From Psammoneis japonica (lineage: Eukaryota), in contig QPGO01000063.1 of assembly GCA_008632985.1 (NCBI GenBank), forward strand, positions 124,001-188,000: a stretch of DNA of 64,000 nucleotides, read 5' to 3'. Shown piece after piece: positions 21,904 through 61,813 of the stretch. The position numbers and the translations under genes were made by a program. Each line of letters opens with the position of its first letter. The stretch's first letter is position 1. The notes under the pieces are model-generated. The model had not been told where the DNA came from, did not search any database, and saw only the letters and a program-made list of their open reading frames with translations.

Positions 21904-21959
21904 TGGGTGATGGGTGCTGAATGCCGCACTCCGAACTGGAACTGCCGGGAAAAAGATGT

Positions 21960-22330: not shown

Positions 22331-22781
22331 CACAAAAGCTGTACGCTACAAGATAGAGATCTACTGCACATGGCAACACAACAGTCAGTGTTAGCCAGGT
22401 TGTTGCTCTCGCAAGCTGTTCGCTCGGCAGCTCCCTCTAGAGAGAGACCAGTCTTGAGCTTTCAGTTCTTTAGATAAACAAGGCCTACGTTACGACCTAT
22501 TGTACACGAAGAAAGACAAGGATCAATGAAAACTAAACGATTATGTATGTGGAACGAAACTGACCCAAAACATTTGGATAGCAAAGAGAAGAAGCGGTTG
22601 ATTTGTTGCCAAAAATTACGATGATATAATCAAGGAGGACAGCCATTGTACTGGTTTTAGAGAAACAAAGAAACTGTTTGACTGTAAAAATCATTATTCT
22701 AAAACACAAGCACTTGTTCGACTATGTCATGAAAGGCATCTGCGAATTGAAACACCGGTCCACCTACTTCCCGCCTTCCGA

Positions 22782-33339: not shown

Positions 33340-34187
33340 GGTCTATGGGTTCTTGCTGAAAAATGCCGCACTCCGAACTGCCGGGAAAAAGATGTGGTGA
33401 AACAGGTACTTGTTCTACGTAGGTTTCTACGTAGTTGTTTGGAGGGAACCCGGAACTTTGGTTCTAGCTGTCTCTCTACTACCATACTTAGAAGTACCGT
33501 GCTCTCTACACTCTTGGGTAGACCTCTCTCTCTAGTAGTAGCTAGAGAGCTACTCTCTCTACTATTCATAGCAGCTAGTAGAATAGAGAGTGGATCAGCT
33601 ATTCTAGCTGCTGTAGAGTAGAGCCCCACCAGTATCGTAGCTCTAGCTCTAGAGGACACGTTTTGGCTTCCGGCATGAAAAAATTGAAAATGTCACATCG
33701 CTCGATAATTTGTTGAGCCTTTTAGCATTGTAGAGAGAACAGGCTGTCACAAAAGCTGTAAGCTACAGGATAGAGATCTACTGCACATGGCAACACAACA
33801 ATCAGTGTTAGCCAGGTTGTTGCTCTCGCAAGCTGTTCGCTCGGCAGCTCCCTCTAGAGAGAGACCAGTCTTGAGCTTTCAGTTCTTTAGATAAACAAGG
33901 CCTACATTACGACCGTATTGTACACGAAGAAAGGCAAGGATCAATGAAAACTAAACGATTATGTATGTGGAACGAAACTGACCCAAAACATTTGGATAGC
34001 AAAGAGAAGAAGCGGTTGATTTGTTGCCAAAAATTACGATGATATAATCAAGGAGGACAGCCATTGTAATTGTACTGGATTTAGAGAAACAAAGAAACTG
34101 TTTGACTGTAATAATCATTATTCTAAAACACAAGCACTTGTTCGGCTACGTCATGTAAGGCATCTGCGAATTGAAACACCGGTCCAC

Positions 34188-35141
34188 TTACTTCCCGCCT
34201 TCCGACTGTCCATCCTGATTGGCTGCGATCTTGTTCAGCTTTTCAAGGATTTGCCCGTTCTGCGCTTGGGTTTGCTCGTTCTGCGCTTTCAGGAAATCAT
34301 TCTGCGCCTTCACGAAATCAATCTCTTTCTTCACGAAATCAATCTCTTTCTTCAGGTTAGTATGAGCCTCCTGGTTTTCTTTCCTCACCTTTGCGAACTC
34401 TTCCTTCACTTCCTTTCTCGTGCTGAAGAAGACGGTGACGGTAGCCAATGGCGATACAACTTTTGCGATGAGTCCACAAATTGTTCCTCCAAAGCTCAAA
34501 ATTTGTGCGACGGTATACACACCGATGCCGATAATGGGAATGGAAAAATTGCAGCACTGTTCGTCCGCCGTTTCCTCTTCCTCTTCCTCGTCGTCGTCAT
34601 TCGGAGCTGTGTCGGTCGCCGGTACAGCCGTTTCGATGCCAACGGTAGTTGAAAACTGGCTCGAAGACGCGGTGCGAGTGGAGTTCGCGTCCTCGTCTTC
34701 CTTCTTGATGCCGCCCTCGGTAGCTTTTCCGTCCCCGAGCGAAGGTGGAGAAGTGGCATCCTCTGCTAGGGTGCTGGAAGATGCATTGCTTGATTCTTCA
34801 AGAGTAACGGCAGGATGCTCTTCTTCTTCTTGAGGAGGAACCACGAAAACAGCAGCAGGTGGGCGCAAACCATCGTCACCCCCAGTTGCCGTAGGAGCAA
34901 GAGTCATGCTGAGCCTATTCTCTTTTCCAGGCTTTGGTGGATTCAAAGTAGCGTTAGACGTTCGAAACAAGTCGGATTCGTTCAGAGTCTTTTCGATGGC
35001 AACAAGAGGGGATCGGCGAGTCGTCGTCCCCGCTTCGGCACGTACTGGAGAAGACCTCGCTTGCAACTTAGAATCCCCGAAGCGTGGGAACGACTTCGCA
35101 TACAAAGGCTTCCTTGCGTTTATGTGATTTTCCTTGTTCAT
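34188..35141 (-). CDS. Orphan family X, copy 3
   Basis: Intact 317-aa ORF. Confidence 0.75.
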   Translation of the reverse strand: MNKENHINARKPLYAKSFPRFGDSKLQARSSPVRAEAGTTTRRSPLVAIEKTLNESDLFRTSNATLNPPKPGKENRLSMTLAPTATGGDDGLRPPAAVFVVPPQEEEEHPAVTLEESSNASSSTLAEDATSPPSLGDGKATEGGIKKEDEDANSTRTASSSQFSTTVGIETAVPATDTAPNDDDEEEEEETADEQCCNFSIPIIGIGVYTVAQILSFGGTICGLIAKVVSPLATVTVFFSTRKEVKEEFAKVRKENQEAHTNLKKEIDFVKKEIDFVKAQNDFLKAQNEQTQAQNGQILEKLNKIAANQDGQSEGGK

Positions 35142-35768
35142 TTACACGATTGTGTTTCGTCGTTGCTCTGGATTGTGTTCTGACGGTTTGAACGAGTTTT
35201 CACAGGCCGAACGGCGGAAATTTGTCGTTACTCCCCTCGTATGTCTCGCTGTAGCTTCTACGACTACTGCGGTAATCCTTGTCGGGGTACTCGCCTCTCG
35301 TATGTCTTACAGTAGATTCTACGACATGGTGGCGGATCTTTCTGTTCGCGAATCGAAGAGCGAAACTGCGCGGCGCGCGCGATCTCCAGGAAAAGATGAG
35401 AGCGGCCGCATTTTTTGAGCATAGCCCATCTCTCGAGAGAACAGGATACTTCTACTAGTAAGCAAAACAACCTGCTTCCGCCTGGATATCGAATACAACC
35501 AGAAACAATCAAGGGAATTGTGCATGTTAGTCAGGATTTCGATGCAACTACCCGTACATTGTCGCACACAAAGAGGAGAACTCACTCTTTTCCTCGAGAA
35601 AACCCTCAGTATTCTTTATCAATTCAACATAATATCAAATTGCTTTCTTTGGTGACAGAAACTGCTCACTGAACCTTGACTAGAGAATTCAAGATCGATA
35701 AGACGATACTGCGACAGCGCCGTTCGGTTCATCTTCGCTGACATTCCTACAAGAAGAATCCATTGATA

Positions 35769-38700
35769 CTATGGATACTCATCTTCGTACTTGCAGATTG
35801 TCTCCCCGATTATGACAAACAGTTCGGCAGTCCCGGCGCGCATGCCACTCTTAATCTGGCGGCTGACCATTGGCGGGCCATTTGGAAATTCTGCTTCGGT
35901 GGAGCACACCAAACGACAAGTATCATTCCCAGTGTTAGTGATAACGTACTGGGTCCACGCAATGAATGTTCCACCGTACGGAACATCGGGCGTTCGTGTC
36001 CTCTTCTTCAAGCAAAAGCAGTGATCATTGTAAACAGTAATCATTGCCGTTTCAAATGCAGTGTTCGCCTTCACAAAAGCTGACTTTGGCATGAGGTAAC
36101 TGCAAAGAGCGCGAGACGGCATAAGAACAAGTGTTAGAACCGCGATTTCATGTCCAAACAACAATGAATCGCTGCAATTACGCACTCTGACTCGATTTCT
36201 GCTCCAACCAAATCTTCGTTGCTGACTCCAGCAGGAAGTTCGGGAAGTCCAATCTCCTCATTGTGATGTGACCATTCTCCGGTGTTGATACTATTGGGCG
36301 AGAGCGCAATGCATAAAACGTTGGTTAGACGACAGACAACAGCGACATCCGAAAAACGCCGAGAAACAATGACGCGCTTACTTTTCGTATTTCGCTTCTT
36401 GCTTCCAGACAGCTTCTGTGATAAAAGACGAGGAATGGTGCAAAATCGCCCAGCGAAGACGTCGGAACCCAACTGGAAGGTCAATCTCAAGTCCGACCAT
36501 TTCCAAGTTCTCCGGAGGTTCAAATCCTGGCGGTGGACTCGGAGGGCCCTTGTCGAACTTGATTGCAGGACCAAGAAGCGGTCCAAGAATTGCGCCCTCC
36601 GCACCTTCTTCCACCTCGAGACGTTTTTGCTTCAAAGTGCGATCATCGGCACGTAGTTCTCGCAGCGCAGAGAGCATAAATGAAGCCTGAAATTTCGCAA
36701 CTTCCACTTTGATTTCCATTTCCATACCCTTCTGTTCAACATAGGAAAATATCTCTATTTGCGGAAACAGGCGAGAAGCACTTTTAGCGCAAAGAGTTAT
36801 CGAGAGACAAGGGAAAAAATCGCCAGTCTTGCAATACTCACCATCGGTCACTGAAGTCAGAATGTACTTCCTCATGGTGGATGGAATCATGAGATACATA
36901 ATGGAGCAAAGTGGCACAGACACGATCCAGTGCACATGATAGAGCCAGGCAAGGCATTGGGCAATGACTTCAAACTTTGTCAGGTGCAAGAGGTGGTACA
37001 TACGCTGCATCCACGTTCTCACCACGCCCAACTTCTTTTCGGGTTCGTCAGCTTCGTCCTGTTTATCTTGCGAACGCTTTTCCTCTCGTAGCTTCCTTTT
37101 GAGCCTCCATTCCCTTCTTCGTTTCGTAACCATTCTGTTCGTGAATCGAATAAGCTTGATCCAGTCAATCTTCTGAACATTGACTGCCAAGACGAAGAAT
37201 GCGCCAACTCTGTATTCAATTTCAGTCTCGATTTCAACGCCGCGTCTCTTCAAGTGAGGTTCCATCAATCTACAAGCGCAAACAAGAAAATGGCAAGGGC
37301 GTTGGGAATGGGTTTAGCTTGGCTCAAACACCAACACTATCAAAAAATATACGTCCCAACGTACCGATACAAATCATTCGACAGCTGCACAGCAATTCGC
37401 CGAGGCGTAAAGTCACTTTGCAGCGCCATCCCCGCCAATCGAACCACGCCAGACTGCGCAATGGCTCGAAACTTTTCAAACCGATCCTCCTCGTTTTCGT
37501 CGGGTGACGAAGTTTGCGCTTCCCACCGCACCTTGGCAAGCCGGTGCAATTCGTTTTCCACAACTCGCGCGGAATTCTTGACAATGACATTGACGTAGAG
37601 GGTCTTGTCATCGTGCACAATATCCCCCAATTCCTTGTCACCCTTGCCTTTGTTGGTTCGGGAGTATTGATCTTGAAATTCCGAACGCTCATCGCCCTCC
37701 TTGATGAGTTCGTAGGCTTCGGCAAATTTGTTTTGCACACGCGACAAGACGCCCTTGCGGTTGGTGCGAAAGCGAATGCCCTTGAGTTTCTCTCGTTCTC
37801 GTTCCCGCTCCAACAAGACGTCATAATAGTGCTTGTCTGCTGCCAAGAGTGACAAGGCTCGTTCCGATTCAATTTCATCATACGTAATGATCTGTGTCTG
37901 AGCCTTGTACACGGTATTGACAAGCGCCTCGTCCGTCAGCACAATGTTGCGTGCCAACTCCGCAGATAACAAAAAGTCGTCTCCGGCTCTCGTGGCAGTA
38001 CCACCAAATGCCGAACGACGGGATTGTTCTTGACTTGCAATAGTGGTCATGTGCACGCTTGTGCTTGTGACACTAGGTGCCACACCATTGGTTAGTTGGT
38101 TCTCGTTCACATCCGAAGAGACACTGTGAAAGTCATCGTTGAAGGATTCTCGGGGCGACGAGAATCCATTTTCCTGACCGAGGCTGTTTCGAAACGAAGG
38201 AAAAAAGGACGCAGCTTCCAATTCTGCTGGGGTCATTGCCGCAGCAGCTGGTGTCTTGAGATAGGTGGGACTCTCCGGGACCAACTCGAGTCGTGTAATC
38301 ACATCCAGAATACACTCATCCTCGTGGCTCTCGGCAGCCTTTAACGAACTAAACGCCTTGCCACAACACCCACAAATCCAAGCATCCTGCATACCATCCG
38401 TCCCACTCCAATACGATTCCGACAGTCCAAACAGTCCGCTGCTTGCACGACTACTGGCAGACGACGATGCGGAGGAGCTCTTTTTGTTTTTTCGCAGCTT
38501 GAAGATTCTTCTCTTCTTCTTGCTCATTCCCGAGACGGTCGTACCATTCTCGGCAATCGACTCTAATTCATAGTAGTCTCCATGATATGCACCACGTTCA
38601 TTCCTCTCCACCGCACCCCGCCTCCATCCCCTCTTTACGGCTCGTTCCGACGAAAGCTCGGATCCTACCGAAGCAGCATCGCTATCACAAGTAGGACGAT

Positions 38701-39037
38701 TTTGAAAGGGCATGCCCAATCGAAATTGATGTTCCCACGGACATTGCACGGGCTTTATGTGATTGGCAGCCTTGAAGGCAAATTCTTGTCGTCCCGTAGC
38801 ACAGTCTGTTGTTGCTTCGTGACGACCTTGGTAATACAATGCCTTTACGGCACGCTGGGCCGCTTCTTGCGCGGCGAGTCGGGCCTCTTGTTTTTCTTGT
38901 GCAAGCGTTTGCTTGTCATTATTCTTCTTGTTTGTTTTTTGTTTCTTCTTCTTGGTTTGCTTACTAGTCGTAGTCTTTTTCTTGTTGCTCTTTTTAGAAG
39001 ATGCCTTGGATTTCACTGAAGTGGAACCGGCCGCCAT
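35769..39037 (-). CDS. VASt (StART-like, GRAMD1/Lam family) lipid-transfer domain protein, multi-exon, intact parent copy
   Basis: Long first exon with a CGCCGKAF..H..C zinc-finger-like motif; in-frame intron 37364-37270 plus further short introns; C-terminal TRTPDVPYGGTF motif typical of VASt. Confidence 0.85.
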
Positions 39038-39196
39038 GGTGTGCTGCTTTTTGTTGCTTTACTCACTCTTTATGCCGCTGGCGAGCGTTGAGCGACACCG
39101 CCATTTTTGTGGGGTCGCGCAAGTCATTCCAAATTTTGCTTCCATCGTGGTTGCTACGTTCATTTATACTATTATGTAGGTTGCTACCATGGATCA

Positions 39197-40038
39197 GTAC
39201 CATAAAATCTTGGATACACGGAATTCGGAATTTGTATCTTGCGAATGACCTTTCTTTGGGTGGGTGCGGTGTGGGTCCGCCATGCGCGAAAAATTTTACT
39301 TGCTGTACTTTGCCCACCTTGTGTCAAGTCACTGGAATTGCCTCGATTGCTCCAGTGGCACAATCTCAGCGACAAATTAGTTTGTGCACAAACAGTGCAG
39401 CACACCTGCTGTGCAACTCCTTTCAAAACGTGAGCCTTGCTGTCCCAAGCATGAGCCTTGGCTGCTGCTGCCGTCTTGCTCTCCTCTTTGCCTCTGGCCC
39501 CGACAAATCTCTGCCAGATGCTGCGCCTCCGGCTGTTTTTGGGGCAACGAGTTTTTGAACTCTGCAAGGCACCCAACATCTGGTTTCTCTGAGTGATGTC
39601 AAACAAGCACAAGTGCTGTGCTTCCAGGCTGATCAGCTCGCACGCAAAGAGGAGAGAAGACAGAGTGGGGGGCTTTTGCTTGTGTGCACTCACCCCATGC
39701 ATGGTGCACTTGGGTTGGAACAACTCCACTGCCTTTTCAAGTTGCTGGAATTGCATCCATTGCTCACAATTAGCAGTGGAATGCATCCAACCGGTCTCAG
39801 TGGAAGGAACGGGGGGAAATGGCACAAAAACATTTGACACTATCGAGAATTGACTACATAGAGTTTTTTCACGCGACAGTACGTGGCTTTGATTGAAGAA
39901 CATACAGACACTTTATCCTCATAAAAATTGATGTGCTATCATACGGGTATTCAAGTACATATGCTACATACATGTTTTGAACTGTGACAAGCTCTTTTTT
40001 GTGATAGTCGCAGCAGTTGGTAGATTTTCAACGGCACT
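39197..40038. mobile_element. Putative non-autonomous DNA transposon (~840 bp) with a TpA-depleted core
   Basis: Flanked by the direct repeat ATGGATCA (39189-39196, 40039-40046), with imperfect inverted ends (AGTACCATAAAATCT vs reverse complement AGTGCCGTTGAAAATCT). Only two TA seen between 39310 and 39840. Confidence 0.5.
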
Positions 40039-40422: not shown

Positions 40423-42390
40423 ATGGGGAAGAACGAAAACAAAGGGAGAGTGTCGCCTGATCCAAGTGATGGCGACCTGGAAGGACAACAAACAGCAGAC
40501 GTTGGGGTTGAATGCGCCCCCACAAAGACTACCAATGAAGCAAAGCCCGATGAGGCCGGAAACCTCGAGGGTCGACTTTTCCACCCGACTCAATGGAAAC
40601 GGCGCGGAGTAGTGGTCACGATATGCGTGTTTCTGCTGGTTGTAGCTGCAGTTGTTGCGACGGCTACATTATTGTCACGGACGGACAAGGCATCAAATAC
40701 CGACAGTTTCAACCCAAGTGCTTCATCTCGTACTACGTATTATGGAACGTGCGACCCCGAGACGAACGAAGGCTGTGAAGACGGCAGCACTTGTACCGAG
40801 GCCACATTGGGCACACCATCTCGTTGTGTCTTGCCTATAGGTGCCGAATGTGAGCACTCTTGGGACTGTCAGTCGGATAACTGCTTTGAGGGTATATGTC
40901 GATGCAACACTTTGGACAGCGCCGGCTGTGAAGGATCAGAAGTTTGTGCTGAGAATTACGATGGCGCCCCTGCTTGTGGATGTCATCACGGCGGTCACTG
41001 CGATCAGACGAACCATTGCGTCTTTCCAATGATATACATGGATGTGCCTCTGGGGAGCTGTACTTGCAATCCCGGTACAAATGCGGGATGTTCCAACCCT
41101 CTTGTGTGTATGGAGTTAGAGTTTATTGCCGATTTACCACCCGCATGCTATGCCACGATGGGCGGAGACTGTGCGAACGACTTTGATTGTGAAACATTGA
41201 ACTGTTTTGAAGGATCGTGTCAGTGTAACCCAGGGATTGGGACTGGTAATTATGGATGCAGTGGCGACGATGTTTGTGTGGGGAATAATGAGGATGGATA
41301 CGGTTGTATAGAGGCTGAAGCGGTCTTTGATACGTGCATTCCCGAGACCAATGAAGGTTGTGATGAAGGAGGCACTTGTATCGAAGATAGTTCGGGTGGC
41401 TCACCTCGATGTGTCTTTGAAGTAGGCGCCGAATGTCAGGACTCAAACGAATGCCAGTCCGAGAATTGTTTCGAGAATAGATGCCGATGCAACACCTTGA
41501 CCAACGCCGGCTGTGATGGGTCATTAGTTTGTGCCGAGAATTACGACGGCACCCCTACTTGTGGGTGTCATCACGACAATCACTGCGACGAGACGAACAA
41601 CTGCGTCTTTTCAATCGTCTTCATGGAGGAGCCTCTGGGGTGGTGTGCTTGTAATCCCGGCACAAATGCTGGATGCCCGGACGGACGCCAGTGTTTGGAT
41701 GTAGATTGGATTGCCGATGAGCCGCCCAGCTGCTATTCTACGATTGGTGGAGACTGTTTGTACGACTTTGATTGTGAAACAAACAATTGCTTCGAAGGGT
41801 CGTGTCAGTGCAATCCGTACCTGCTTTGGACCGAAAATCATGGATGCAGTGGCGACGATGTTTGTGTGGGGAATGATCAAGACGGATACCGCTGTGTCTT
41901 CGAAGTAGGCGCCGAATGCCAGGACTCAAGTGAATGCCAGTCCGAGAACTGTTTCGAGGGTAGATGCAGATGCAACACCGTGACCAACGCCGGCTGTGAT
42001 GGGTCATTAGTTTGTGCCGAGAATTACGACGGCACCCCTACTTGTGGGTGTCATCACGGCAATCACTGCGACGAGACGAACCATTGTGTCTTCCCAATGG
42101 TATACATGGATGAGCCTCTGGGGAGCTGTGCTTGTAATCCTGGCACAAATGCTGGATGCCCAGACGGACGCCAGTGTTTGGATTTAGATTTTATTGCCGA
42201 TGAACTGCCCGCCTGCTACTCCACGATTGGTGGAGACTGTTTGCACGACTTTGATTGTGAAACGCACAGTTGTTTCGAAGGGTCGTGTCAGTGCAATCCT
42301 TATATTTGGACCGAAAATCATGGATGCAGTGGCGATGATGTTTGTGTGGGGAATGATCAAGACGGATACCACTGTAGAGCCAATGTCTGA
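40423..42390 (+). CDS. Type II membrane protein with three ~160-aa acidic Cys-rich repeats
   Basis: One TM helix (VVVTICVFLLVVAAVVATATLL) followed by three units beginning CV..GAEC....CQS.NCFE..CRCNT (~40820, ~41405, ~41890). Confidence 0.85.
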   Translation: MGKNENKGRVSPDPSDGDLEGQQTADVGVECAPTKTTNEAKPDEAGNLEGRLFHPTQWKRRGVVVTICVFLLVVAAVVATATLLSRTDKASNTDSFNPSASSRTTYYGTCDPETNEGCEDGSTCTEATLGTPSRCVLPIGAECEHSWDCQSDNCFEGICRCNTLDSAGCEGSEVCAENYDGAPACGCHHGGHCDQTNHCVFPMIYMDVPLGSCTCNPGTNAGCSNPLVCMELEFIADLPPACYATMGGDCANDFDCETLNCFEGSCQCNPGIGTGNYGCSGDDVCVGNNEDGYGCIEAEAVFDTCIPETNEGCDEGGTCIEDSSGGSPRCVFEVGAECQDSNECQSENCFENRCRCNTLTNAGCDGSLVCAENYDGTPTCGCHHDNHCDETNNCVFSIVFMEEPLGWCACNPGTNAGCPDGRQCLDVDWIADEPPSCYSTIGGDCLYDFDCETNNCFEGSCQCNPYLLWTENHGCSGDDVCVGNDQDGYRCVFEVGAECQDSSECQSENCFEGRCRCNTVTNAGCDGSLVCAENYDGTPTCGCHHGNHCDETNHCVFPMVYMDEPLGSCACNPGTNAGCPDGRQCLDLDFIADELPACYSTIGGDCLHDFDCETHSCFEGSCQCNPYIWTENHGCSGDDVCVGNDQDGYHCRANV

Positions 42391-48685: not shown

Positions 48686-49040
48686 TCTCGCTATAGAGAG
48701 AGAAAAGTTTCTTCCTGTAACTGATCACAACAATCAAGACACAAAGCTGTGGCCCTTTAAATGCGCAATTGCTGAGTAATCCATATATTATGTGTCGCAA
48801 GTGCAACAACTGCCAACAACCGCCTGAGGCCTGAGTTCTGTTCTGTCATGTAAGCATTGGATCGTTTTCGCACGATCGACGTATGCGGGAAGACTCTGGA
48901 ATAGCGCTATCCAAAGAAGTTCTGTCCTCCAGTGCCTCATGGGGTTTTCCCAGTACAAGTTTAACGAATGAAAGAGACGTGAACTCCATACGCACTGATT
49001 GACAGACTGTTTCCGAACAATGCAATAAAAAAATGGTTCT

Positions 49041-49265
49041 TGTCAACACAGTACGAACTCATGCGCGATTCGCGCGCGCTACGCTTGCGTATGCGATTTC
49101 TTTCATCGGTCTTTTCTCAACTTTTCTCACAATTACAACATCTAGTGTAACAAGACATTAGCAGCTTTGCTGATTATACCGTCATCGTTAGCCCTCTTTG
49201 CTAGCGACACGTCTGCCATTCGACCTCAGTCGACTTCTCCTGGCTCTCAGACGAGAGTCATCGCA
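49041..49265 (+). repeat. 5' LTR
   Basis: Colinear with 56411-56635; 10 mismatches, no indels. Confidence 0.97.
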
Positions 49266-49378
49266 GGCCAGAAGCCCAAGTGTCGCGCTTGATCACTCCT
49301 GTGCTCATCTCTTTCTCTCCGGTGGACGAGAATTGAGCTCTGTACATTTCTGCGCACAATTCTACGTGAGTGTTGCAC

Positions 49379-49785
49379 ATGTCCGAAAGGAACTCTGCGA
49401 CACTTGATGACCTTGTTGAACAACTGCAAGCCCTGCAACTTCAAGAAGTGGAGCTTGTTCGTCGCATTGCCGCAGAACGAGAACGGCAGAATCGTCTTGC
49501 AACACCAACGCAAGCCGGAACTGCTCGTGGAATTGTCTTACAACACCAACGCAAGCCAGAACTGCTCGTCCTTCTGCTTCAACAGCACAAGAACCCGCCG
49601 TTGCGGATTTTCACGTGGGAGACCGTGTTGTCATGACGAACGAAATTTGCAACTTTCGCCGCACCGTTGCTGTCCAAGACCGTCAAGCAACTGTCACTCG
49701 CATTGCAGAACAGCAAGTGTTTGTCCACACGGATGATGGAAATGCCACTAATCGGCATCCGAAGAACCTGCACTTTCTCGCGTAA
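49379..49785 (+). pseudogene. Extra ORF upstream of gag (coiled coil plus small beta-rich domain), frameshifted
   Basis: MSERNSATLDDLVEQLQALQLQEVELVRRI..., then in another frame FHVGDRVVMTNEI...RQATVTRI...VFVHTDDG..TNRHPKNL*. Confidence 0.5.
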
Positions 49786-49790
49786 TTCGC

Positions 49791-51258
49791 ATGCCTGGCA
49801 TCGCAGCGAGCATTCCGCTCCCACCTTCTCCGCCAGCCAGCATGTCCAAAGTTCAAATCAACGGGCGGAAGGTGAAAGTCCGCGCGACGCCGAAAGCGTC
49901 ACAAGACACTCTTGCTGCTCTCTACACCAAGGAGCAGCGGAACCATTTGGATCCTGACAAGCTCAACGGCCTCTTTCTGAAGGCTGCTTCGAAACAGCAG
50001 ACAAAATTTGACCTCCTCAACGTCAACATCAACGATCCCGACAAGCTCGAGGACACTTGTGACCTCGCAATGTCCATCTCAACCATGCGTTCAAACCATG
50101 TTAAGTGTGACATGGATGACGTCTTCACCATCATCGACCCGGATGAACTCACGACTCGATTCCTCGATCACCGCTGCCGAGGTCGCCGCCAGCAACAAAT
50201 GGCACACAACCATGCTTGAGGACCCTGATGGGACTTGGGCAAGCCAAAATCTTCGTCTTGCTCACGACCACTTCGAGCGGAACTCCTCCACAGCGCTGCA
50301 AAAGAAAGTCAACAAGACGCACCTCAAGTGCGCACAGGAGCAGCAGGGCGGACCTCTCTTCTTTGTTGTCATGATGAAACTCCTCCAGAGCAACTCCGAA
50401 GAGGCCGCTCGTCATTTGGTTTCCAACACAACCAACCTCAAGATCATCGACTTTGACGGAGAGGACGTCAGCAAAGTCATCTCTCTCATTCGCGGTGGTT
50501 GTTCTCGACTCGCAAACCTCCAGGATCAGAAGGGTCAGTCAGTCATCCCTGCTGATTTTTTGGAGAACCTCACCAAAGTCTTCCAAACGTTGAGCGTCCC
50601 TGAGTTTAACTCACTCTTCGAACACCTCACCAAGGATTCCAAGACTTCCAAACTCAAGCAATCGGGCTCAACATCCGCAGCAACAACCACCACGGTGGAC
50701 GACATCCTGTCCTTTGCCGAAGGCGAACATCTCACTCTCGTTGCCTCCGATCAGTGGTCCGGCGTGACCACTGAGAAACAGGCGACTTCATTCATCGCGG
50801 GCGTCGTCACCTGTTTTGACTGTGGTGGTCCTCATTCTTTGTCAGACTGCAAGAAACTGGTCGACGAAGCTCGTGTTTGCGCCAACAAGAAACTGTTCTT
50901 TGACGCAAAACGGGCCCAGTGCAAGAACAACTCAACGGGATCCTCCTCTTCCGGTCCCTCCACCAAGACCATTCCCAAGAAATGGCAGCCACCGACTGAC
51001 GCTGAAAAGAATGACAACAGTCGCTGCAATGTCGATGGCAAAGATCATTGCTGCCATTGCAAGACCAAGCGCTGGCGCCCGGTGTCTAAGACGGGGAACG
51101 TTGCTTCAGCTCCAGCAGCTGCACCTCCTCCCGCTCCAGCCGCTGCGCCCGCTCCAGCACCGGCTTCCGCTCCTGTTGCGGATCGCGACCCAGCCACAGC
51201 CAACGTCAAGAAGGAGATGGTCAAAACCATGACCGGCCTCTTCGCCTCCTTCACCTGA
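49791..51258 (+). pseudogene. Copia gag (one frameshift near 50150)
   Basis: QQGGPLFF, LKIIDFDGEDVSK and zinc knuckle CFDCGGPHSLSDC. Confidence 0.85.
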
Positions 51259-54200
51259 AGATTCGGGCACACCTCTCCTCCGGAGCGTGTGGCCCTTTCT
51301 TCTCTTTTCTTCAGCCAACCGTCCGATCCTGGAAGGGATGTCCAGGCTCATTTGTCGGTTGGCCACTTTCTGCTCCTGTGGTTCACTCTCCAGATTCTTG
51401 GAGAGGGAGGGATCGAAGCGGCATCCACTGTTTTGCAGTTGCTGTTTGTCTCAGTGGGTGGATGTTTGTTCTGCTTGCTTCCATTTTCCAAGAATCCTTC
51501 GCTTTCATGGGACGATCTACCCGACTTTGTTGTTGTTCCTTCTCCTGAACCGACCTCTTTTCGTCGTCCTCCTGTTCGACCTCGGACAACACATCATGCT
51601 CAAGCACGCCGCTTGGCTCGGCGTCCAGTTCGAGTCCCACGCAGAGACCCCTTGTGGTCCTTCCTTCAACCAACGACCTGGCGTAAACACCGCCGAACGC
51701 CTGTTCCGGATGGCGCAACAACTGCCGATCCGGATTGCTCCTGTCGTAAATCCAAGTCATGGAAACTCTCAAGATCGAGACGCCGAACCAAACCCAGGAA
51801 AACAAGACCACCTGGATTTGCCTGCGTTGATCCTCAGCAAGAGGCCACAGAAGCCCACTCTCAAATCAAGCACCGCCTGTTGCATCTGCCATCTGAGATG
51901 TGTGAATTCCCTCATGGTGCGACGCCAACTGATTTTGTTGCTTTGCTTGATCCTCTTGGTGACTGCCTGAGGACCAAGTCCTGTGGCTCCTTGACACAAA
52001 CGGAGCCCTCACCTTTTGCACCACCAGACGACCCTGAAGCTTGCGAACTAGAAGAGTTCTTCCGAGTCAAACACCGACTGCTGCACCAAACCTGGATCAT
52101 GTGCGACATGCAGTGCGGTTGTTCGTTAGACGAATTTGTTCAAGGCATTGACCCATTGGAGCAACTCCATTTGATCAAAGCACTTGCCTCTTCCGAAATG
52201 CCACGAGCTTGTGGTCAAGCACCAACGCTGTCTTGCGTTGCAACCAACTTGTCTCGAACGACAACTGCCACCTTTGCGAGTGGTTTTGGTGGAGTGGCTG
52301 TGTTCTCCCACCAGACCATGACTGGACCATCCCATGTTGTTGCATCTGAGCCGGATCCACCATGGCCAACCAAAGATCCAGTGCAACACATCAAGTCCTT
52401 CCGGGATTCTAGGGATCTGGAAGGCTGCCAATGTCAAGCATTGACATCGTGCTTGCCTGTCGACGCACCTGTTGTTCTCAACACTGGAGCATCCTCGTCG
52501 CTCACACCTCACTCAAGCGACTTCACTGGACCGCTGGAACCTGTTAACACTGCCACCATCAACGGGTTGTCTTCCAGCACCCGAGCAGTTGGTCAGGGTT
52601 TCGTGGAATGGGGCACAATTGATTGTTGGAACGTCATCTGGACGGTCCGAACGCGAGCCCACTACGTTCCAGATGCTTCCATTCAACTCTTCAGCCCTCA
52701 AGCCTGTTTTCAAGAGAATGGAAACCAAGGAGAATGTTCAGTGTGTGGCAACAAAGCAACCCTCACTCTTCCGAAAGGCAACACGCTTGATTTCCCAAAC
52801 AACAAGGAAAACAACTTGCCCTTCATGATGATGTCCGAACCGATCTCCGCTGGAGTCACCCAATGTAATTTGGCTCCCGTCAGTGCTAAAGCACGCCTCA
52901 CTTCGTTCCTCTCCGTCACCTCTCAGACCAACCAGAATTTAACACCCGGCCAGAAGGAGCCACTTCTCCTCCATCAGAAACTTGGTCATGCCGGCTTCCA
53001 TCACATTCAACACTTGTGCGCCACTCCACGGGATCCCACCAAATCACACATCATCAAGCCCACTTCACAAACCGTCTCCAGTTGTGCTGCACCGTCATGT
53101 GCTGCCTGTCAACTCGCAAAGCAGAAACGACGAACTCCTGATTGTCGTGGCACGTCCAATCCTCCGCCGTTGACGTTGCGAGAGGGAGATTTGGCACCTG
53201 GTCAACGCGTCTCCGTTGATCAGTGTGTCAGTCGTGTCCCTGGCCATCTTCCGACGACAAAGGGACGCAAACCCAAGAAAGACAAGCACTGTGGAGGCAC
53301 GATTTTTGTTGATCATGCTTCCACCTGTGTTCATCTGACCCATCAAGTTGGTCTCACCGCAGGTGAAACTGTTCATGCCAAGCAGTCCTTCGAGCAGCTT
53401 AGTGACCAATTTGGGGTCCGCATCAAGTCCTGCCTTGCTGATGATGCACCGTTCGGCACCAAGGCCTTCATGCATGACCTCAAAGAAAACAACCAAACTG
53501 TTGATTTTTCTGGTGTTGGAGCTCATCATCAGAACAGTGCAGCCGAGCGCTCCATCCAAACTGTCACCTCATGGGCAAGAGCCATGCTCCTGCACGCCAT
53601 TCTCATGTGGCCCGATGCCGCCAATCTGGAATTGTGGCCTTTTGCCATGACCCATGCGACCCACCTGTGGAACCACATCCCGAAGTCTGACACTCGCACC
53701 GCGCCAGTTGAAATCTTCTCCAAGCAACGATTCGACACTTGCACACATCTACAGCGCTTGCAGGTGTGGGGCTGCCCTGCATGTGTTCTTGACCCCAAGT
53801 TACAAGACGGCAAGAAACTGCCCAAGTGGGACCCCAGAAGTTGCCGTGGCCAATGTCTGGGCATCTCGCCGGATCATTCTGCCAACATTGGCCTCATCTT
53901 GAATCTAACAGCCGGCTGTGTCAGCCCTCAATGTCATGTGGTCTACGACAACCACTTTGCTGCGGCTCCCAACAGTGATTCTGGCGGCTTCTTCCAGGAT
54001 GTTCCCTTCACCGCCGATCTCTGGGAATCCTTGCTCACAGCCGACTCACTGGTTCACAATGCTCCTCCCCAGCCTTCTGACACTGACGACCCTCGCCGCT
54101 GCTTGCCGGCCTTGCACGATGATTGGTTGACCCCCGCAGAGCGCCGTCATCGCGCTAATCATCGAAATGACCGCCGTCAATGTCATCTCCAAAATTCCAA

Positions 54201-56390
54201 AATGGCCTCTCCTGCTGTCCCTGCATCAACCTCTTCCATCACAGCTCCAGAGGGAGAGCTTCCTGCTGCTGAATCATCTGCTGACGATCTAGAATCTGCA
54301 ACTTCAGAGGCTCCAGAGGGAGTCGAGATTGATGAGTTCAGTGATGACAGCGATGACAAATTGTCATTGGTCGATCATCACGACTTGCCAGAGGATCTAG
54401 ACTTAGACTCTGAAGCAGCTGAGCCACCTCAACTGGCTCCGAATGCTGCCACTGCACCAACTCAGACTCAAAGCGGTCGCACCGTCAAGAAGCCAGAACG
54501 CCTGATTGAAGCAATGCATGCTGACATCCGCACTCCGCCAACGAGTTGCCGAATGCCCACAAAAATCCCCAAACGCACCGTCAAGTCGGAAACCCCAAAC
54601 AAACAGTTCTTGATGGCTTTGCATTGGGATGGCATTGCAAATGCACTCCGGTCCAAAGACTTGTGCGCAATGCTCAACCTCTTCAACAAAAACACCGATC
54701 AAGTCCACGGCACACTCGAAGAAATGCACCCTCTTGCCCTCGCAGCTAATGCAAATTCGGCTGACAATCCAACTTGGGAAGAAGCAATGAGTGGCCCTGA
54801 TCGAGCAGCCTGTCTTAAAGCTTGCGACGTCGAAATCGATTCCCTGGCACAAGGCAAGGACGCCTGGGATGAAGTGGATTGACAAGATTGGATGAACGCA
54901 CTGCCGTCCACATGGGCCTTCAAGTGCAAACGATGCCCCGATGGGTCAATCAGAAAATGCAAAGCCCGATTCTGCGTCCGCAGAGACAAGCAATTGGAAG
55001 GTGTCGACTGTTTTGACACCTTTGCTCCAGTTGTCAATTGGACGACCGCACGGCTCATGCTCACACTTTCTCAAATTTTGGAACTTTCGACGAAACAAGT
55101 TGATTGTGTCACCACTTTCGTCCATGCTCCAATCGACAAGGATCCCAAATGGGACACCATGACACCCGAAGAGCGGGAACGCTCTGGCATCTTCGTACAA
55201 ATGCCTCGTGGATGCTCCAAGCCCGGCAAAGTGCTGAAACTCAAACGGACCGTGTGTGGTCTCAAACAAGGACCTCGCAACTTTTTCCTGCACCTCAAGT
55301 CAAAACTTGAAGATGCTGGATTCCAATCGCAAGACGATGTCGATCCATGTCCACTTGCATCTGACAAAGTCATCTGCCTCGTGTGTGTTGATGACACACT
55401 GTTCTTCTCTCCAAAACAAGAGTGCATCGACGAAGTGATCGAGAAACTCAAAATTGATGGCGGTCTGGCCATCGAAGTTGAAGATTCCATCGCAGGTTTT
55501 TTAGGAGTACACATCGAACGCGACACCGACAATGGCACTGTCAAGCTCACTCAGAGCGGCCTGTCCAAATGTGTCGTCGAAGCCCTCAACGCAGGCCATC
55601 CACCGAAGGCCCGAACGCCCGCACCAGCTACTCCGTTGGCCAAGGACACCGATGGAGACCCACCAAATGGAGCCTGTAATCATGCCAGCGTGGTTGGCAT
55701 GCTCCAATGTCTCCAAGGCCATTCTGGGCCAGACATTGCCTGCGCCGTCAGCTCAGCAGCCAGATTTGTTTATGGCCCTCGTCACTCGCATGAACTGGCC
55801 CTTGAACGGATCGGTCGATGCCTGAAGGGTGCTCTGGATGATGGTTTGGTCCTCAAGCCATCTGGGGACTTCAACATTGACGTGTTTGTTGACTCAGATT
55901 TTGCTGGACTGTGGCCTCATGAAGACAAGCATGACCCGGCTTGCATCAAGAGCGAACAGGATTTGTCATTTGCATTTCTAACTGTCCTGTCATTTGGTCC
56001 AGCAAGCTTGCACCCGAGATTGCTCTCTCAACAATGGAAGCAGAGCACAACGCTCTTTCCACTTGCATGAAAACTGTCCTTCCCTTTCTGCGCACTGCAC
56101 AAGCCATTTCCCAAGGCATCGGAGTTGGTCCAGGGACCACCAAGACTGTCCGCACCACTGTGTGGGAGGACAATGCTGGGGCTTTGACTCTAGCTAACAT
56201 GGAACCTGGCCGAGTGACGCCCAGGTCCAAGCACCACGCAATCAAGTGTCGTTGGTTCCGTTCACAGCTCAAACCAAATCGAGTTGCTGTTTCCAAGATC
56301 GCAACAGACTTGCAATGCGCTGACACACTTTCCAAAGGTCTCGTTACGGTTAAATTAGAGGCCATTCGAAAGTTGCTTTGCGGTTGGTAG
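51259..56390 (+). pseudogene. Copia pol (protease, integrase, RT, RNase H), inactivated
   Basis: VVLNTGAS (protease, D>N), HQKLGH..C..C and D,D,E integrase, RT CVDD, RNase H VDSDFAG/EDN. TGA at 54880 and a frameshift near 55955. Confidence 0.95.
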
Positions 56391-56410
56391 CTTCTTCGTT
56401 CGAGAGGGAG

Positions 56411-56635
56411 TGTCAACACAGTACGAACTCATGCGCGATTCGCGCGCGCTACGCTTGCGCGTGCGATTTCTTTCATCGGTCTTTTCTCAACTTTTCTCAC
56501 AATTACAACATCTAGTGTAACAAGACATTAGCAGCTTTACCGATTATACCGTCATCGTTAGCCCTCTTTGCTAGCGATACGTCTACCATTCGACCTCAGT
56601 CGACTTCTCCTAACTCTCAGACGAGAGTTGTCGCA
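56411..56635 (+). repeat. 3' LTR
   Basis: Follows the PPT and is followed by TSD GTTCT. Confidence 0.97.
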
Positions 56636-56969
56636 GTTCTGCACACGCAAGCTTCTTTGGACAGCTGCTGGCCAGACACGACGCTATTCATACCGCATGA
56701 GCCGCACGTGCGGTCCTCGCGCGTGAGGTTCAGGTGGGAGGCTTGTGTTGCAGTGCACACGCGGCACACGGCACTCATTTCTTATTCTTCTTGCTTCTCA
56801 ACTACTGTACTGTACAGTAGTCGTAGTTGCAACAGCTTTCTTGTCTCCCTAAAGAAACACTTACGCGTATTGTATCACTGGCAGAGGTCGAAAGAGGACT
56901 TCCGCCTGTCACTTCTGCCCAAGAGCAAAGAATGATTTACAATAATACTCGTGCTGTTTTGACATTACA

Positions 56970-60784: not shown

Positions 60785-61813
60785 TCACTTTTGATTGAGA
60801 GTCAAGAGCTGATCCAGCTTTTCGTTAATGCAGTTCGCAAGTTCTCCCTGTTGCTTCATCCATGCGTCCTGTTTCTTGTTCCATTTCTCCTGTTTATTAT
60901 TCCATTCGTCCTGTTTCTTGTTCCATTTCTCCTGTTTCTTATTCCATTCCTCCTGTTTATTATTCCATTTCTTGTTTTCTTTCCTCACCTTGGCAAACTC
61001 TTCCTTCACTTCCTCTCTGGCCCCAAAAAACATGACAACAGTTGAAAATGGCGATACAACTTTTGTGATGAGTCCACAAGTTGCTCCTCCGAAGCCCAAA
61101 ATGTTTGAGCCGATAAACGCACAGACGCCGACAATGGGAATGGAAAAATTGCAGCACTGCTCCTCCGTCGTTTCCTCTTCCTCGTCGTCCTGGTGGGGGT
61201 CATTCGGAGCTGTGTCGGTCGCCGGTACAGCCATTTCAATGCCAACATCAGTTGAAAACTGGCTCGAAGACGCGGTGCGAGTGGAGTTCGCGTCCTCGTC
61301 TTTCTTCTTGATGCCGCCCTCGGCAGCTTGTCCGTTCCCGAGCGAAGGTGGAGAAGTGGCATCCTCCACTGGGGAGCTGGAAGATTCATTGCTTGTTTCT
61401 TCATCTTGATTATCAAGAGTAACGGCAGGATGCTCTTCTTCTTCTTCTTCTTCTTCTTCTTCTTCTTCTTCTTCTTCTTCTTCTTCTTCTTCTTCTTCTT
61501 CTTGAGGAGGAACCACGAAAACAGCTGCAGGTGGGCGCGAACCATCGTCGCCCCCAGTTGCCGCAGGAGCAAGACTCATGCTGGGGCTGTTCTCTTTTCC
61601 AGGCTTTGGTGGATTCAAAGCAGCGTTAGACGTTCGAAACAAGTCGGATTCATTCAGAGTCTTTTCGATGGCAACAAGAGGGGATCGGCGAGTCGTCGTC
61701 CCCGCTTCGGCACGCACTGGAGAAGACCTCGCTTGCAACTTAGAATCCCCGAAGCGTGGGAACGGCTTCGCATGCAAAGGCTTCCTTGAGTTCAAGTGAT
61801 TTTCCTTGTTCAT
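60785..61813 (-). CDS. Orphan family X, copy 4 (diverged; poly-Glu expansion, different heptad tail)
   Basis: Same N-terminus as copies 1-3; C-terminal (WN[N/K]KQ[E/D]x)n repeats. Confidence 0.75.
   Translation of the reverse strand: MNKENHLNSRKPLHAKPFPRFGDSKLQARSSPVRAEAGTTTRRSPLVAIEKTLNESDLFRTSNAALNPPKPGKENSPSMSLAPAATGGDDGSRPPAAVFVVPPQEEEEEEEEEEEEEEEEEEEEEEEHPAVTLDNQDEETSNESSSSPVEDATSPPSLGNGQAAEGGIKKKDEDANSTRTASSSQFSTDVGIEMAVPATDTAPNDPHQDDEEEETTEEQCCNFSIPIVGVCAFIGSNILGFGGATCGLITKVVSPFSTVVMFFGAREEVKEEFAKVRKENKKWNNKQEEWNKKQEKWNKKQDEWNNKQEKWNKKQDAWMKQQGELANCINEKLDQLLTLNQK
61435..61503. repeat. (CTT)~23 microsatellite encoding poly-Glu
   Basis: Pure trinucleotide run; 4-5 Glu at the equivalent site in copies 1-3. 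Confidence 0.95.

Follow-up and report, generated by a model that had tools for sequence, protein, structure and literature searches.

A single LTR retrotransposon in the 64,000-nucleotide window (the whole stretch of DNA that was analysed) carries a bounded tract, beginning within its 5′ LTR, in which TpA dinucleotides have been replaced by TpG and CpA. The state of the element is probably accounted for by conversion of TpA in chromosomal DNA after insertion, and the host is most likely a pennate diatom.

The element and its LTR pair

The locus is a single inserted Ty1/copia-type LTR retrotransposon on the forward strand, identified by its LTRs, target-site duplication, polypurine tract and the placement of integrase before the RVT_2 domain. 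The 5′ LTR (49041–49265; 225 bp, with TG...CA ends) is a direct repeat of the 225-bp 3′ LTR (56411–56635), and its last ~60 bp lie within the TA-poor tract. The 5-bp target-site duplication GTTCT precedes the 5′ LTR (49036–49040) and is found again, identical, after the 3′ LTR (56636–56640). A polypurine tract read from the sequence, GAGAGGGAG (56402–56410), adjoins the 3′ LTR. The gene order is gag-PR-IN-RT-RH. The gag-like ORF (50008–51258) had no Pfam match and aligns to relatives over 73 conserved columns. The protease-integrase ORF (51289–54882) matched two Pfam families, gag_pre-integrs with E 1.1e-4 and SH3_retrovirus with E 1.8e-5, each under its curated cut-off, and the reverse transcriptase ORF (54892–56070) matched RVT_2 with 72 bits versus a cut-off of 31.6. 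The RNase H/C-terminal pol ORF (55941–56390) is in a different frame from the RT ORF; tblastn alignments of homologues change frame at 55935–55956, indicating a frameshift near 55940–56070. The named homologues on which the host assignment is based, among them RT homologues from Seminavis robusta and Nitzschia inconspicua, are only 39–53% identical. The bestrophin gene, placed in a protein atlas to help with host taxonomy, fell among mixed eukaryote clusters, Bacillariophyta being the most frequent group in two of four, which does not decide the matter. The catalytic motif, LVYVDDTLFF in the homologue consensus, reads LVCVDDTLFF here (YVDD to CVDD). Judged by its sequence, the element is a dead copia-type copy, a member of the group by descent: it has CVDD, has lost 24 of 26 conserved tyrosines and is frameshifted before RNase H. 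Searches of the 64-kb window by blastn with both LTRs and the interior, and by tblastn with five homologues, revealed no further copies or solo LTRs.

Both flank-LTR junctions are crossed by contigs with 0 differences. At the right end, an independent Logan contig spanning 56607–57700 with 0 differences links the 3′ LTR states at 56612–13 and 56629–30 to unique flank; the left-flank contig reaches 49070 only, and the other LTR states are those of the assembly alone. One contig joins 49014 to 56648 with 14 other letters, having 23 letters on its shorter side, and might represent an element-free allele.

The two LTRs are 95.6% identical. Alignment recovered the same 10 differences in 225 bp, transitions only, that the initial annotation had described: 49090 T/C, 49091 A/G, 49169 G/A, 49171 T/C, 49208 C/T, 49215 G/A, 49242 G/A, 49243 G/A, 49259 C/T and 49260 A/G (5′ LTR/3′ LTR). 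Purine/pyrimidine recoding makes the LTRs 100% identical. The probability that ten of ten differences are transitions is 0.002–0.017 when transversions are given a share of 0.47, 0.39 or 0.33. Eight of the differences had been placed in TpA. Six of them (49090, 49091, 49169, 49208, 49215 and 49242) do lie in a TpA present in one of the LTRs, while the remaining two, at 49259–60 (CA versus TG), require a TA that is itself reconstructed. The latter pair had been read as one TA hit on both strands; the CA/TG states are as described, and this reading is no better than one from an ancestral CG. The differences at 49243 and 49171 are off-motif, as had been noted.

When 23% of possible LTR transitions make or break a TpA, six or more of ten are expected with P = 0.014, or P = 0.009 when adjacent pairs are taken as single events (five of seven). 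Five differences (49090, 49091, 49171, 49259 and 49260) fall at a dinucleotide that is, or possibly once was, CpG in one LTR and fit CpG decay equally well; under that reading only the other five support hypermutation. For 49171 and 49259–60, CpG-to-TpG/CpA decay, a second, slower process in the same element, is at least as likely. Two places count against TpA hypermutation: at 49241–43 (CTAA to CTGG) a poor-context site is accompanied by an off-motif second change, and at 49259–60 the LTR that lies in the tract has its poor-context strand changed. On its own, the LTR pair is modest, even weak, evidence; it becomes strong once the context of the tract is added.

Outgroup LTRs were sought in public metagenomes with a degenerate 31-nt LTR pattern, which gave 0 matches. 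One diverged LTR contig covers 49176–49221, with divergence too high for outgroup use. Among 79 related loci, 17 terminal-repeat matches were found, one being a 5.5-kb duplication (L019) and another a second overlapping match (L003). Nine pairs were 100% identical, most of them resembling assembly overlaps. Six loci had differing terminal repeats, with 18 differences in total, a number too small to act as a proper control, distributed as 7 transversions, 3 TpA-site, 4 CpG-site and 4 other changes.

Polarity, context and edges of the TA-poor tract

The TA-poor tract (tract 1, 49203–56344) contains 40 TpA versus 393 expected (rho 0.10). TG and CA are in excess (561 versus 373 and 689 versus 520 expected, respectively), and CpG is at 389 versus 493. 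In 79 related metagenome elements rho TpA is 0.21–0.90, with a median of 0.61 as read off the list, and their longest runs free of ATA/TAT are at most 791 bp, compared to 6595 bp in this element, where a single ATA/TAT is found between 49176 and 56545. In the flanks and in host genes rho TpA is about 0.4–0.9; tract 1 lies on a retrotransposon.

Polarity was determined with two sets, 120 protein homologues and 76 metagenome loci, the latter providing 700 conserved columns with 137 mismatches. None of eight tyrosines conserved in RT among the 120 homologues is kept (five are Cys, one is His and two are Phe), and Tyr content is 0.3% in the element versus 3.3% in homologues. Compared to the 76 loci, there were 41 TA losses (25 TA>TG and 16 TA>CA) versus one gain (P = 2e-11); the remaining mismatches were 17 CG>CA, 4 CG>TG, 15 other transitions and 59 that are not a single transition, so that CpG-type changes make up 21 of 78 single-transition replacements. 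Only 2 of 26 conserved tyrosines are kept in this comparison, 12 having become Cys and 8 His. By ORF, all three in the gag-like ORF and both in RNase H are now His, while in the protease-integrase ORF, with 13 conserved Tyr columns, two are kept, seven are Cys and two are His. The earlier claim that TA was the ancestral state thus stands for the interior, with its 41 losses versus one gain and its Tyr codons turned into Cys or His; at all ten LTR sites the direction would follow from the interior and from position.

That both strands had been mutated was borne out: the numbers of TA>TG and TA>CA do not differ significantly (P = 0.21), and both kinds are present among the LTR differences. The 3′ neighbour of lost TpA follows the order T-A-T >> T-A-C > T-A-R (T-A-A/T-A-G). 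At the three informative LTR sites (49169, 49208 and 49215) the strand hit is in each case the one with the better 3′ neighbour. We regard the signature, its polarity, its strand symmetry, its extended context and, on the left, its sharp edge as established by these sequence comparisons. Selective avoidance of TA by the element was considered and rejected, since conserved Tyr codons and the catalytic motif have been destroyed and rho in relatives is about 0.6. Unrelated environmental copia elements with the same erasure of Tyr to Cys/His were also found, affecting 11 of 11 conserved Tyr in P0021 and 8 of 10 in P0075.

The left edge of the tract is inside the 5′ LTR, between 49178 and 49208. 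There are 11 TpA sites in this LTR up to 49202 and zero from 49203 onward. Observed TpA sites have been lost in the 5′ LTR at 3 of 3 positions at or beyond 49203 versus 1 of 12 at earlier positions (Fisher P = 0.009), and the 3′ LTR segment matching the tract-covered end keeps its TpAs. In total the 3′ LTR keeps 14. Outside the tract, best-context TpAs survive in the 5′ LTR (49090, 49175 and 49177) and in the 3′ LTR (56545, 56547 and 56578); inside tract 1 the survival of this class is 0–2%. A tract start at 49178–49208 explains the differences at 49169, 49208, 49215, 49242 and 49243 as changes suffered by the inserted copy. The initial annotation had proposed that the changes arose after integration, and the entry of the tract into the 5′ LTR, while the corresponding 3′ LTR segment is intact, agrees with this. 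Other genomic copies bear different hits of their own: TATA at 49175–78, for example, is TGCA in another copy.

On the right the boundary, between 56345 and 56545, is diffuse. TA losses are inferred as far as 56325, and within the 3′ LTR's first 134 bp the sole best-context TpA (56460–61) has changed too, which probably marks the other edge of the tract; GTAC and CTAC at 56422 and 56450 survive beside it. A TATA-like motif, ATTATAC (49173–49179, forward strand), is kept in both LTRs and lies 25–30 bp upstream of 49208, where the first TpA has been lost. Its TpAs are in the best contexts (TTAT and ATAC) and are retained at 49175/49177 and 56545/56547. As a speculation, the motif could be a promoter, in which case the edge of the tract may coincide with a transcription start. 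No RNA record is listed for the stretch, which carries no information on expression. A tract that tracked the sense transcript should, however, extend over U3 and R in the 3′ LTR, and neither is covered.

The same signature was found at an unrelated place in the window. Tract 2 (2440–13373) has sharp edges, at about 2360–2545 and about 12830–13374, and contains 44 TpA versus 747 expected (rho 0.059), 1266 TG, 1170 CA (rho CpA+TpG 1.79) and 153 CpG versus 621 expected. No credible Pfam match was obtained for its 66 stop-to-stop ORFs; a match to a Cys-rich keratin family was sub-threshold and was taken as a composition artefact. Purine/pyrimidine recoding, applied in search of hidden repeats near tract 2, revealed none except the LTR pair. 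Three 5.7-kb tandem host repeats in the window served as a control: 243 of 516 differences between them are transversions, TA losses and gains number 18 and 38, and the repeats, two of which (copies A and B) are 99.4% identical, bear no hypermutation signature.

Origin of the tract

In the course of events that we consider probable, the element would have inserted and afterwards a process acting on chromosomal DNA would have turned TpA into TpG or CpA (A:T to G:C, on either strand). Conversion would begin inside the 5′ LTR, span the whole interior and fade near where the 3′ LTR starts. The loss would amount to about 290 TpA, with destruction of nearly all Tyr codons and of YVDD and a rise in local G+C of about 4 points. 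The chemistry may be adenine-to-inosine deamination, carried out on DNA by a TadA/ADAT-like deaminase, and the tract may be aimed by a factor (transcription, small RNA or chromatin) that recognises the element. Much of the interior depletion could be inherited from a mutated parent, with only the LTR-overlapping part tied to this insertion.

The last point may be taken further by supposing that the entire TA-poor interior was inherited from a mutated parent mobilised in trans, and that the LTRs differ by ordinary transitions, mostly CpG deamination and 3′ LTR changes from CpA/TpG to TpA. If so, the LTR pair is silent on the timing of hypermutation. Half of the ten LTR differences are at sites that are CpG in one LTR, and CpG-type changes are common in this family, as seen from the 21 of 78 replacements above and from 17 CpG-type differences between copies among 40 listed of 871 variant places. 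Taken by itself, the LTR statistic (P = 0.014) is modest, and at 49214–15 another copy has CG, from which a CG>TG>TA path is as short as one by TA loss. A mutated parent would nevertheless give identical LTRs, and the asymmetry is thus still post-insertion; it extends the interior tract into the 5′ LTR (3 of 3 versus 1 of 12), and obeys the context rule of the tract in the strand hit at all three sites. TA gains are nearly absent from the interior (1 versus 41). We consider this explanation unlikely. Rather less probable still is a chimera, in which gene conversion or assembly joined a mutated 5′ LTR end and interior to unmutated LTR parts. The family is multi-copy by summed contig depth (190–1014 over the element versus 58–63 in the flanks, a figure that is not copy number), none of the records listed covers the element from end to end, and several contigs connect places that are not adjacent. 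The perfect 5-bp target-site duplication, on the other hand, argues against a crossover between two insertions, the contigs crossing both flank-LTR junctions have 0 differences, and tract 2 has the same sharp-edged signature where no repeat partner is seen.

Two further possibilities concern the chemistry. An ADAR-like or ADAT-like enzyme could have edited A to I in the genomic RNA of the element, and reverse transcription would have fixed the changes before integration. Adenosine deaminases that act on RNA usually prefer a 5′ U/T neighbour, according to a preprint (10.64898/2026.01.13.699255), and, speculatively, the left edge of the tract is about where a transcript would begin. RNA editing hits one strand, however, and the coding strand here has 16 T>C and 25 A>G. 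Editing before reverse transcription yields identical LTRs and cannot give TA loss in the 5′ LTR alone, where the U5-side TpAs are lost; the RNA includes U3 of the 3′ LTR, yet this part has been spared. T is the favoured 3′ neighbour and G a poor one, opposite to the ADAR preference for 3′ G, and tract 2 has the same signature without sign of a retroelement. The exclusion of ADAR-type editing in the initial annotation is upheld by the LTR asymmetry and by the hits on both strands, and we find RNA editing very improbable. The process could, finally, have run in the reverse direction, by RIP-like cytosine deamination of CpA to TpA, the TA-bearing LTR states being derived. The LTR pair alone cannot separate CA/TG>TA from TA>CA/TG, and the differences are all transitions, as under RIP. 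RIP enriches TpA, though, and the element is about 10-fold depleted; outgroup polarity is opposed by 41 to 1, which refutes this direction for the interior, and the 5.7-kb tandem repeats in the window are untouched. Such an origin is scarcely credible.

Conversion after insertion, as preferred here, has consequences for annotation. The LTR pair becomes an internal clock for post-insertion hits, and the earlier warning that LTR-divergence dating would overestimate age is supported for a copy hypermutated after insertion. Genomes of this kind would mislead dating by LTR divergence, repeat-family clustering and domain-based annotation, as exemplified by the inflated age of the element and by tract 2, which is without a recognisable domain; erasure of TAA and TAG stops also leads to spurious long ORFs. 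The positions of tract edges can be set against those of transcription starts, small RNAs and chromatin marks, and the order T-A-T >> T-A-C > T-A-R provides a substrate rule for candidate deaminases in vitro.

Comparison with known systems

The closest counterpart is in Bigelowiella natans. As described in the preprint (10.64898/2026.01.13.699255), the A>G/T>C changes that mutation-accumulation lines of this alga acquire in integrated viral DNA fall at TpA only, with a rate near 6e-7 per site per generation, and its TpA-depleted coding sequences are enriched for RT and DDE domains. An ADAT2-like adenine deaminase is proposed there (Mettrop et al., bioRxiv 2026). [quoted passage not shown] B. 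natans is a chlorarachniophyte (a rhizarian) and its target is viral, whereas here the apparent host is a diatom (a stramenopile) and the target is an LTR retrotransposon. The chromosomal origin of the mutations is experimental in B. natans and would here be read, indirectly, from LTR asymmetry and copy-specific hits. Depletion is near saturation in the tracts described here (rho 0.10 and 0.06), compared to 0.45 in the B. natans giant-virus region. By the B. natans CpA+TpG cut-off of 1.52, tract 1 falls below (1.40) and tract 2 above (1.79), while the TpA values of both (0.10 and 0.059) are within the accompanying TpA cut-off, the cut-offs having been set on another genome. The 3′-neighbour preference and tract edges inside LTRs belong to the present case; the main text of the preprint contains no mention of diatoms, LTRs, retrotransposons or trinucleotides. 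Our literature search returned this preprint alone for the TpA mutation type and nothing for diatoms. New here, then, are the apparent diatom host, the LTR retrotransposon target, tract edges inside LTRs and the T-A-T >> T-A-C > T-A-R preference.

If this reading is true, adenine-type TpA hypermutation would also occur in a second, ecologically dominant lineage and would hit retrotransposons besides integrated viruses, and "adenine RIP" in protists, whether ancient or recurrent, becomes a testable idea. Tentatively, and with some doubt on our part, SAR-clade protists including diatoms may have a widespread TpA hypermutation defence, in which tracts start from the promoter-proximal LTR boundary, guided by transcription or small RNA, through a DNA adenine deaminase acting on T-A-Y. 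The T-A-Y preference would then mirror the U33-A34 context of tRNA deaminases, and the Tyr erasure in P0021 and P0075 would be a footprint in other species.

Diatom copia-like retrotransposons of the CoDi type resemble the element in gene order, RVT_2 domain and 5-bp target duplication, this copy being dead. ADAR hyper-editing of repeat dsRNA in animals is likewise A-to-G with a 5′ U/T preference. ADARs prefer a 3′ G, act at the RNA level and are animal-specific, whereas the changes here are fixed in DNA, on both strands, with T as the best 3′ neighbour and in a protist host. Vertebrate APOBEC3 likewise inactivates LTR retrotransposons and endogenous retroviruses by deaminase hypermutation that can be read from genomes (Knisbacher and Levanon 2016, PMC4866542). 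The substrate of APOBEC3 is cytosine of minus-strand cDNA before integration, giving one-strand G>A and identical LTRs, in contrast to the adenine-type changes on both strands after integration seen here. Fungal RIP is alike in that it mutates transposons irreversibly within chromosomal DNA, hitting both strands, by transitions only and at a specific dinucleotide, with edged tracts and inflated LTR ages. RIP is a duplication-dependent, fungus-specific process of C>T at CpA that creates TpA; here the change is A>G at TpA, and tandem repeats are untouched.

Anatomy of the element and its host neighbourhood

The interval 49036-56640 holds a single complete insertion of a Ty1/copia-type LTR retrotransposon. 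Two 225-bp LTRs of the form TG...CA, at 49041-49265 (5') and 56411-56635 (3'), lie between perfect copies of a 5-bp target-site duplication (GTTCT), and the 3' LTR is immediately preceded by a purine tract (56402-56410). The ORFs follow the order gag-like (50008-51258), protease-integrase (51289-54882), reverse transcriptase (RT; 54892-56070) and RNase H, the last (55941-56390) in a different frame from the RT ORF. RVT_2 was matched in the RT ORF with 72 bits against a cut-off of 31.6; the gag_pre-integrs and SH3_retrovirus matches in the protease-integrase ORF were each below the Pfam cut-off. Two tandem 40-41-nt copies, 93% identical and with all three differences being transitions, are present at 49489-49569, in the leader or the gag start.

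Host genes encoding a PHD-finger protein, tubulin, bestrophin, a family-3 GPCR with periplasmic-binding domains and CAF-1 subunit A surround the element. All named homologues among the 36 matches of the GPCR are from pennate diatoms (Seminavis robusta, 44% and 42%; Cylindrotheca closterium, 39%), and the named RT homologues among the 120 listed of 734 matches are from Seminavis robusta and Nitzschia inconspicua, both pennate diatoms. On this homology, the host is probably a diatom. One independent contig from the sequencing run (Logan contig) links 49014 to 56648, with 14 other letters between and only 23 letters on its shorter side. It may represent a diverged allele without the element, in which case the insertion would be polymorphic and young despite the 4.4% LTR divergence.

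TpA-poor tracts and their sequence context

Tract 1, at 49203-56344, contains 40 TpA where 393 are expected (observed/expected ratio, rho, 0.10), with 561 TG (373 expected) and 689 CA (520 expected). Rho TpA is 0.75 and 0.91 in the two LTRs, about 0.5-0.65 in the flanks and 0.21-0.90 over whole loci of 79 related copia elements from metagenomes (median 0.61, read off the list). Only one ATA/TAT occurs between 49176 and 56545, and the resulting run of 6595 bp compares with a longest run of this type of 791 bp in the 79 relatives (median 269 bp). Reverting about 290 A:T>G:C changes would lower G+C of the tract from 0.53 to 0.49, the level of the flanks. The right end of the tract fades: inferred losses reach 56325, and the last 66 bp of the interior retain four TpA, mostly in poor context. 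Over its first 134 bp the LTR has one best-context TpA (T-A-T on one strand), GTAT, for which the 3' LTR shows GCGT; those deeper in the 3' LTR (56545, 56547 and 56578) are intact.

The signature is stronger in tract 2, at about 2440-13373 (10.9 kb), with 44 TpA against 747 expected (rho 0.059), a CpA+TpG rho of 1.79 and CpG reduced to about a quarter (153 against 621 expected). Its edges are sharp, with normal TpA density as far as 2359 and from 13374 onwards. No repeats were found at its ends, and a Pfam search with 66 ORFs gave no credible match. The tract probably represents foreign or mobile DNA of greater age that has degraded completely, under both the TpA process and CpG decay. Since TAA and TAG have been erased in both tracts, TGA is the sole remaining stop codon and spurious long open frames appear on both strands. 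With 67 ORFs of at least 80 aa overlapping 2400-13400, such tracts can easily mislead gene-calling programs.

The 40 surviving TpA of tract 1 are a non-random sample. An A preceding the T, which on the opposite strand is a T following the A, accompanies about half of TpA in the relatives and 1 of the 40 survivors. Expressed per context relative to the relatives, survival was 0-0.02 for ATAN, 0.15-0.16 for GTAC and CTAC, 0.18 for GTAA, 0.26 for TTAA, 0.37 for CTAA and 0.38 for CTAG. The same order was obtained for tract 2 measured against the rest of the window. The preference per strand is T-A-T >> T-A-C > T-A-G and T-A-A.

Polarity and timing of the changes

An LTR pair cannot separate TA>TG/CA from TG/CA>TA; a coding interior can. 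None of eight Tyr columns conserved in 120 protein homologues (48-70% identity) keeps Tyr in the element (5 Cys, 1 His, 2 Phe). Tyr makes up 0.3% of its residues versus 3.3% in homologues, Cys 4.6% versus 2.0%, and the catalytic consensus LVYVDD reads LVCVDD. Codons were compared with 117 homologues, three (P0021, P0075 and P0117) being excluded because they carry the same Tyr-loss signature. The 80 mismatches in 369 conserved columns comprised 9 TA>TG, 9 TA>CA, 9 CG>CA, 1 CG>TG, 1 TA gain, 9 other transitions and 42 that are not single transitions. An independent comparison of all four ORFs with 76 metagenome loci, after exclusion of the three with lowest TpA (L021, L052 and L074), gave 137 mismatches in 700 conserved columns: 25 TA>TG, 16 TA>CA, 17 CG>CA, 4 CG>TG, 15 other transitions, 1 TA gain and 59 not single transitions. 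Here 2 of 26 conserved Tyr columns were kept, with 12 changed to Cys, 8 to His, 3 to Phe and 1 to Asn. TA losses outnumbered gains 41:1 (P = 2e-11), with no difference between strands (25 vs 16, P = 0.21). Thus, TA is ancestral, its loss is derived and both strands were hit. The initial annotation had proposed this polarity, and hits on both strands, from the LTRs; both were borne out in the interior. The LTR sites are polarised indirectly, through the interior and their position, no outgroup LTR being found in the window or the metagenome scan. Judged from its sequence, this copy is dead.

The CpG-type replacements of the interior (49203-56344) are strand-asymmetric: read along the coding strand, CG>CA occurs 17 times and CG>TG 4 times (P = 0.007). 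The cause may be biased detection, the inference working from amino acids, or a distinct deamination of cytosine on one strand, for example on minus-strand cDNA.

Ordinary divergence was assessed on a 5.72-kb unit present in three tandem copies at 20786-39300 (22122-39300 in the TpA control), of which A and B are 99.4% identical and C about 91%; a partial fourth copy lies 26.6 kb away, at 60785-61813. Among 516 differences that set a single copy apart from its two counterparts, 243 are transversions, 18 TA losses, 38 TA gains and 44 CpG-type changes. Divergence in this genome is therefore neither transition-only nor TpA-centred and, since the repeats lack the TpA-loss signature, the process is not triggered by duplication alone. 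The long minus-strand ORFs of the repeats (e.g., 22782-23699 and 24666-25805) had no Pfam match, nor did a 655-aa ORF at 40423-42390 that carries three internal repeats (40822, 41407 and 41890), each about 480-585 bp long. The terminal repeats of the relatives yielded 18 usable differences, 7 of them transversions and 3 at TpA sites, too few for a control.

The LTRs of the element differ at exactly the ten positions initially reported, all transitions, and are identical in purine/pyrimidine code. As had been claimed, six differences coincide with a TpA that one of the LTRs shows, two more (49259-60, CA vs TG) require an inferred TA, and 49243 and 49171 are off-motif. CpG is present, or may once have been, in one of the LTRs at 49090, 49091, 49171, 49259 and 49260. 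TpA is made or broken by 23% of possible transitions in these LTRs, giving P = 0.014 for at least six of ten; for ten transitions out of ten P is 0.002-0.017, varying with the assumed transversion share. Taken alone, the LTR pair is suggestive at most.

Taken together, the two LTRs have 16 TpA sites, the inferred one included. Up to 49202 the 5' LTR retains its TpAs except 49168-69, including the best-context sites 49090 (GTAT), 49175 (TTAT) and 49177 (ATAC). From 49208 on, every observed TpA is gone (49208, 49214-15 and 49241-42), a loss of 3/3 versus 1/12 before (Fisher P = 0.009). The 3' LTR retains the TpAs matching these three, so the tract begins within the 5' LTR, somewhere from 49178 to 49208. 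At all three informative sites the change is on the strand whose 3' neighbour is better: TTAC>TTGC (49169), ATAC>ACAC (49208) and CTAC>CTGC (49215). In the change CTAA>CTGG at 49241-43, the site is of poor context and the second hit is off-motif.

A reverse-transcribed copy starts with identical LTRs, whatever befell its RNA or parent. Since the tract overlaps the inner end of one LTR only, it was laid down on the inserted copy, barring recombination or mis-assembly; an independent contig links the right-hand LTR states (56612-13 and 56629-30) to the flank, but not the left-hand ones. The earlier argument for changes in chromosomal DNA after insertion thus holds for 49169, 49208, 49215, 49242 and 49243, and probably for 49090-91; it is unproven for the CpG-type half. 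This timing applies to the LTR-overlapping sites, about half of the ten; part of the interior depletion may predate the insertion. Another copy in the sequencing run has TGCA where this copy has TATA at 49175-78; such hits of their own in other copies speak for mutation in place, copy by copy. A second process, CpG-type decay, is real in this family and accounts for 21 of 78 single-transition replacements in the 76-locus comparison and for 17 of the 40 between-copy differences listed from 871 variant places (the others being 10 TpA-type, 8 transversions and 5 other transitions). This decay explains 49171 and can be the source of 49259-60, even of 49090-91. A TATA-like ATTATAC 25-30 bp upstream of the left edge of tract 1 gives the idea, based on this motif, that the edge might be a transcription start; this reading is weakened because U3 and R of the 3' LTR, expected within the transcript, were spared.

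Relation to known mutators

ADARs favour a 3' G neighbour, which does not fit the context of the tracts; the fixed U33-A34 context of tRNA adenosine deaminases does. Editing by APOBEC3 and ADAR precedes integration and affects one strand. In logic, fungal RIP comes closest; its chemistry and direction are the reverse, however, and it requires duplication.

Among the 120 listed of 734 RT homologues from public assemblies, P0021 has His or Cys in place of all 11 conserved Tyr, P0075 has lost 8 of 10 to His/Cys and P0117 4 of 10 (2 His or Cys, 2 Phe). At the sequence level, P0021 and P0075 at least seem to bear this footprint in other organisms, and the three together suggest that the process is present in more species. 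Saturation as in the element was seen in none of the 79 metagenome loci, but one of the three retrieval patterns required a Tyr and similarity ranking disfavours mutated copies.

A full-text literature search returned one account of this type of mutation (Mettrop et al., bioRxiv 2026, 10.64898/2026.01.13.699255). According to the main text of this preprint, 230 of 231 single-nucleotide mutations in an integrated giant-virus region and a virophage region of Bigelowiella natans mutation-accumulation lines were A>G or T>C, all of these at TpA, with a rate of about 6e-7 per site per generation and in some lines only. The genome has 124 clusters depleted of TpA and enriched in CpA+TpG, RT and DDE domains are enriched in depleted coding sequences, and an ADAT2-like protein is proposed as the enzyme (10.64898/2026.01.13.699255). 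As described there, the process is matched by the element in sequence context, polarity, symmetry between strands, clustering and the kind of target chosen. The host differs, being here apparently a diatom, as does the target, an LTR retrotransposon, and depletion is here near saturation. The main text, in which diatom, LTR, retrotransposon and trinucleotide do not occur, is silent on the 3'-neighbour rule and on tract edges inside LTRs, both seen here; its supplements may hold neighbour information. We conclude that the phenomenon is real and striking, that its mutation type has already been described, in 2026 and in another protist, and that its anatomy is in part new.
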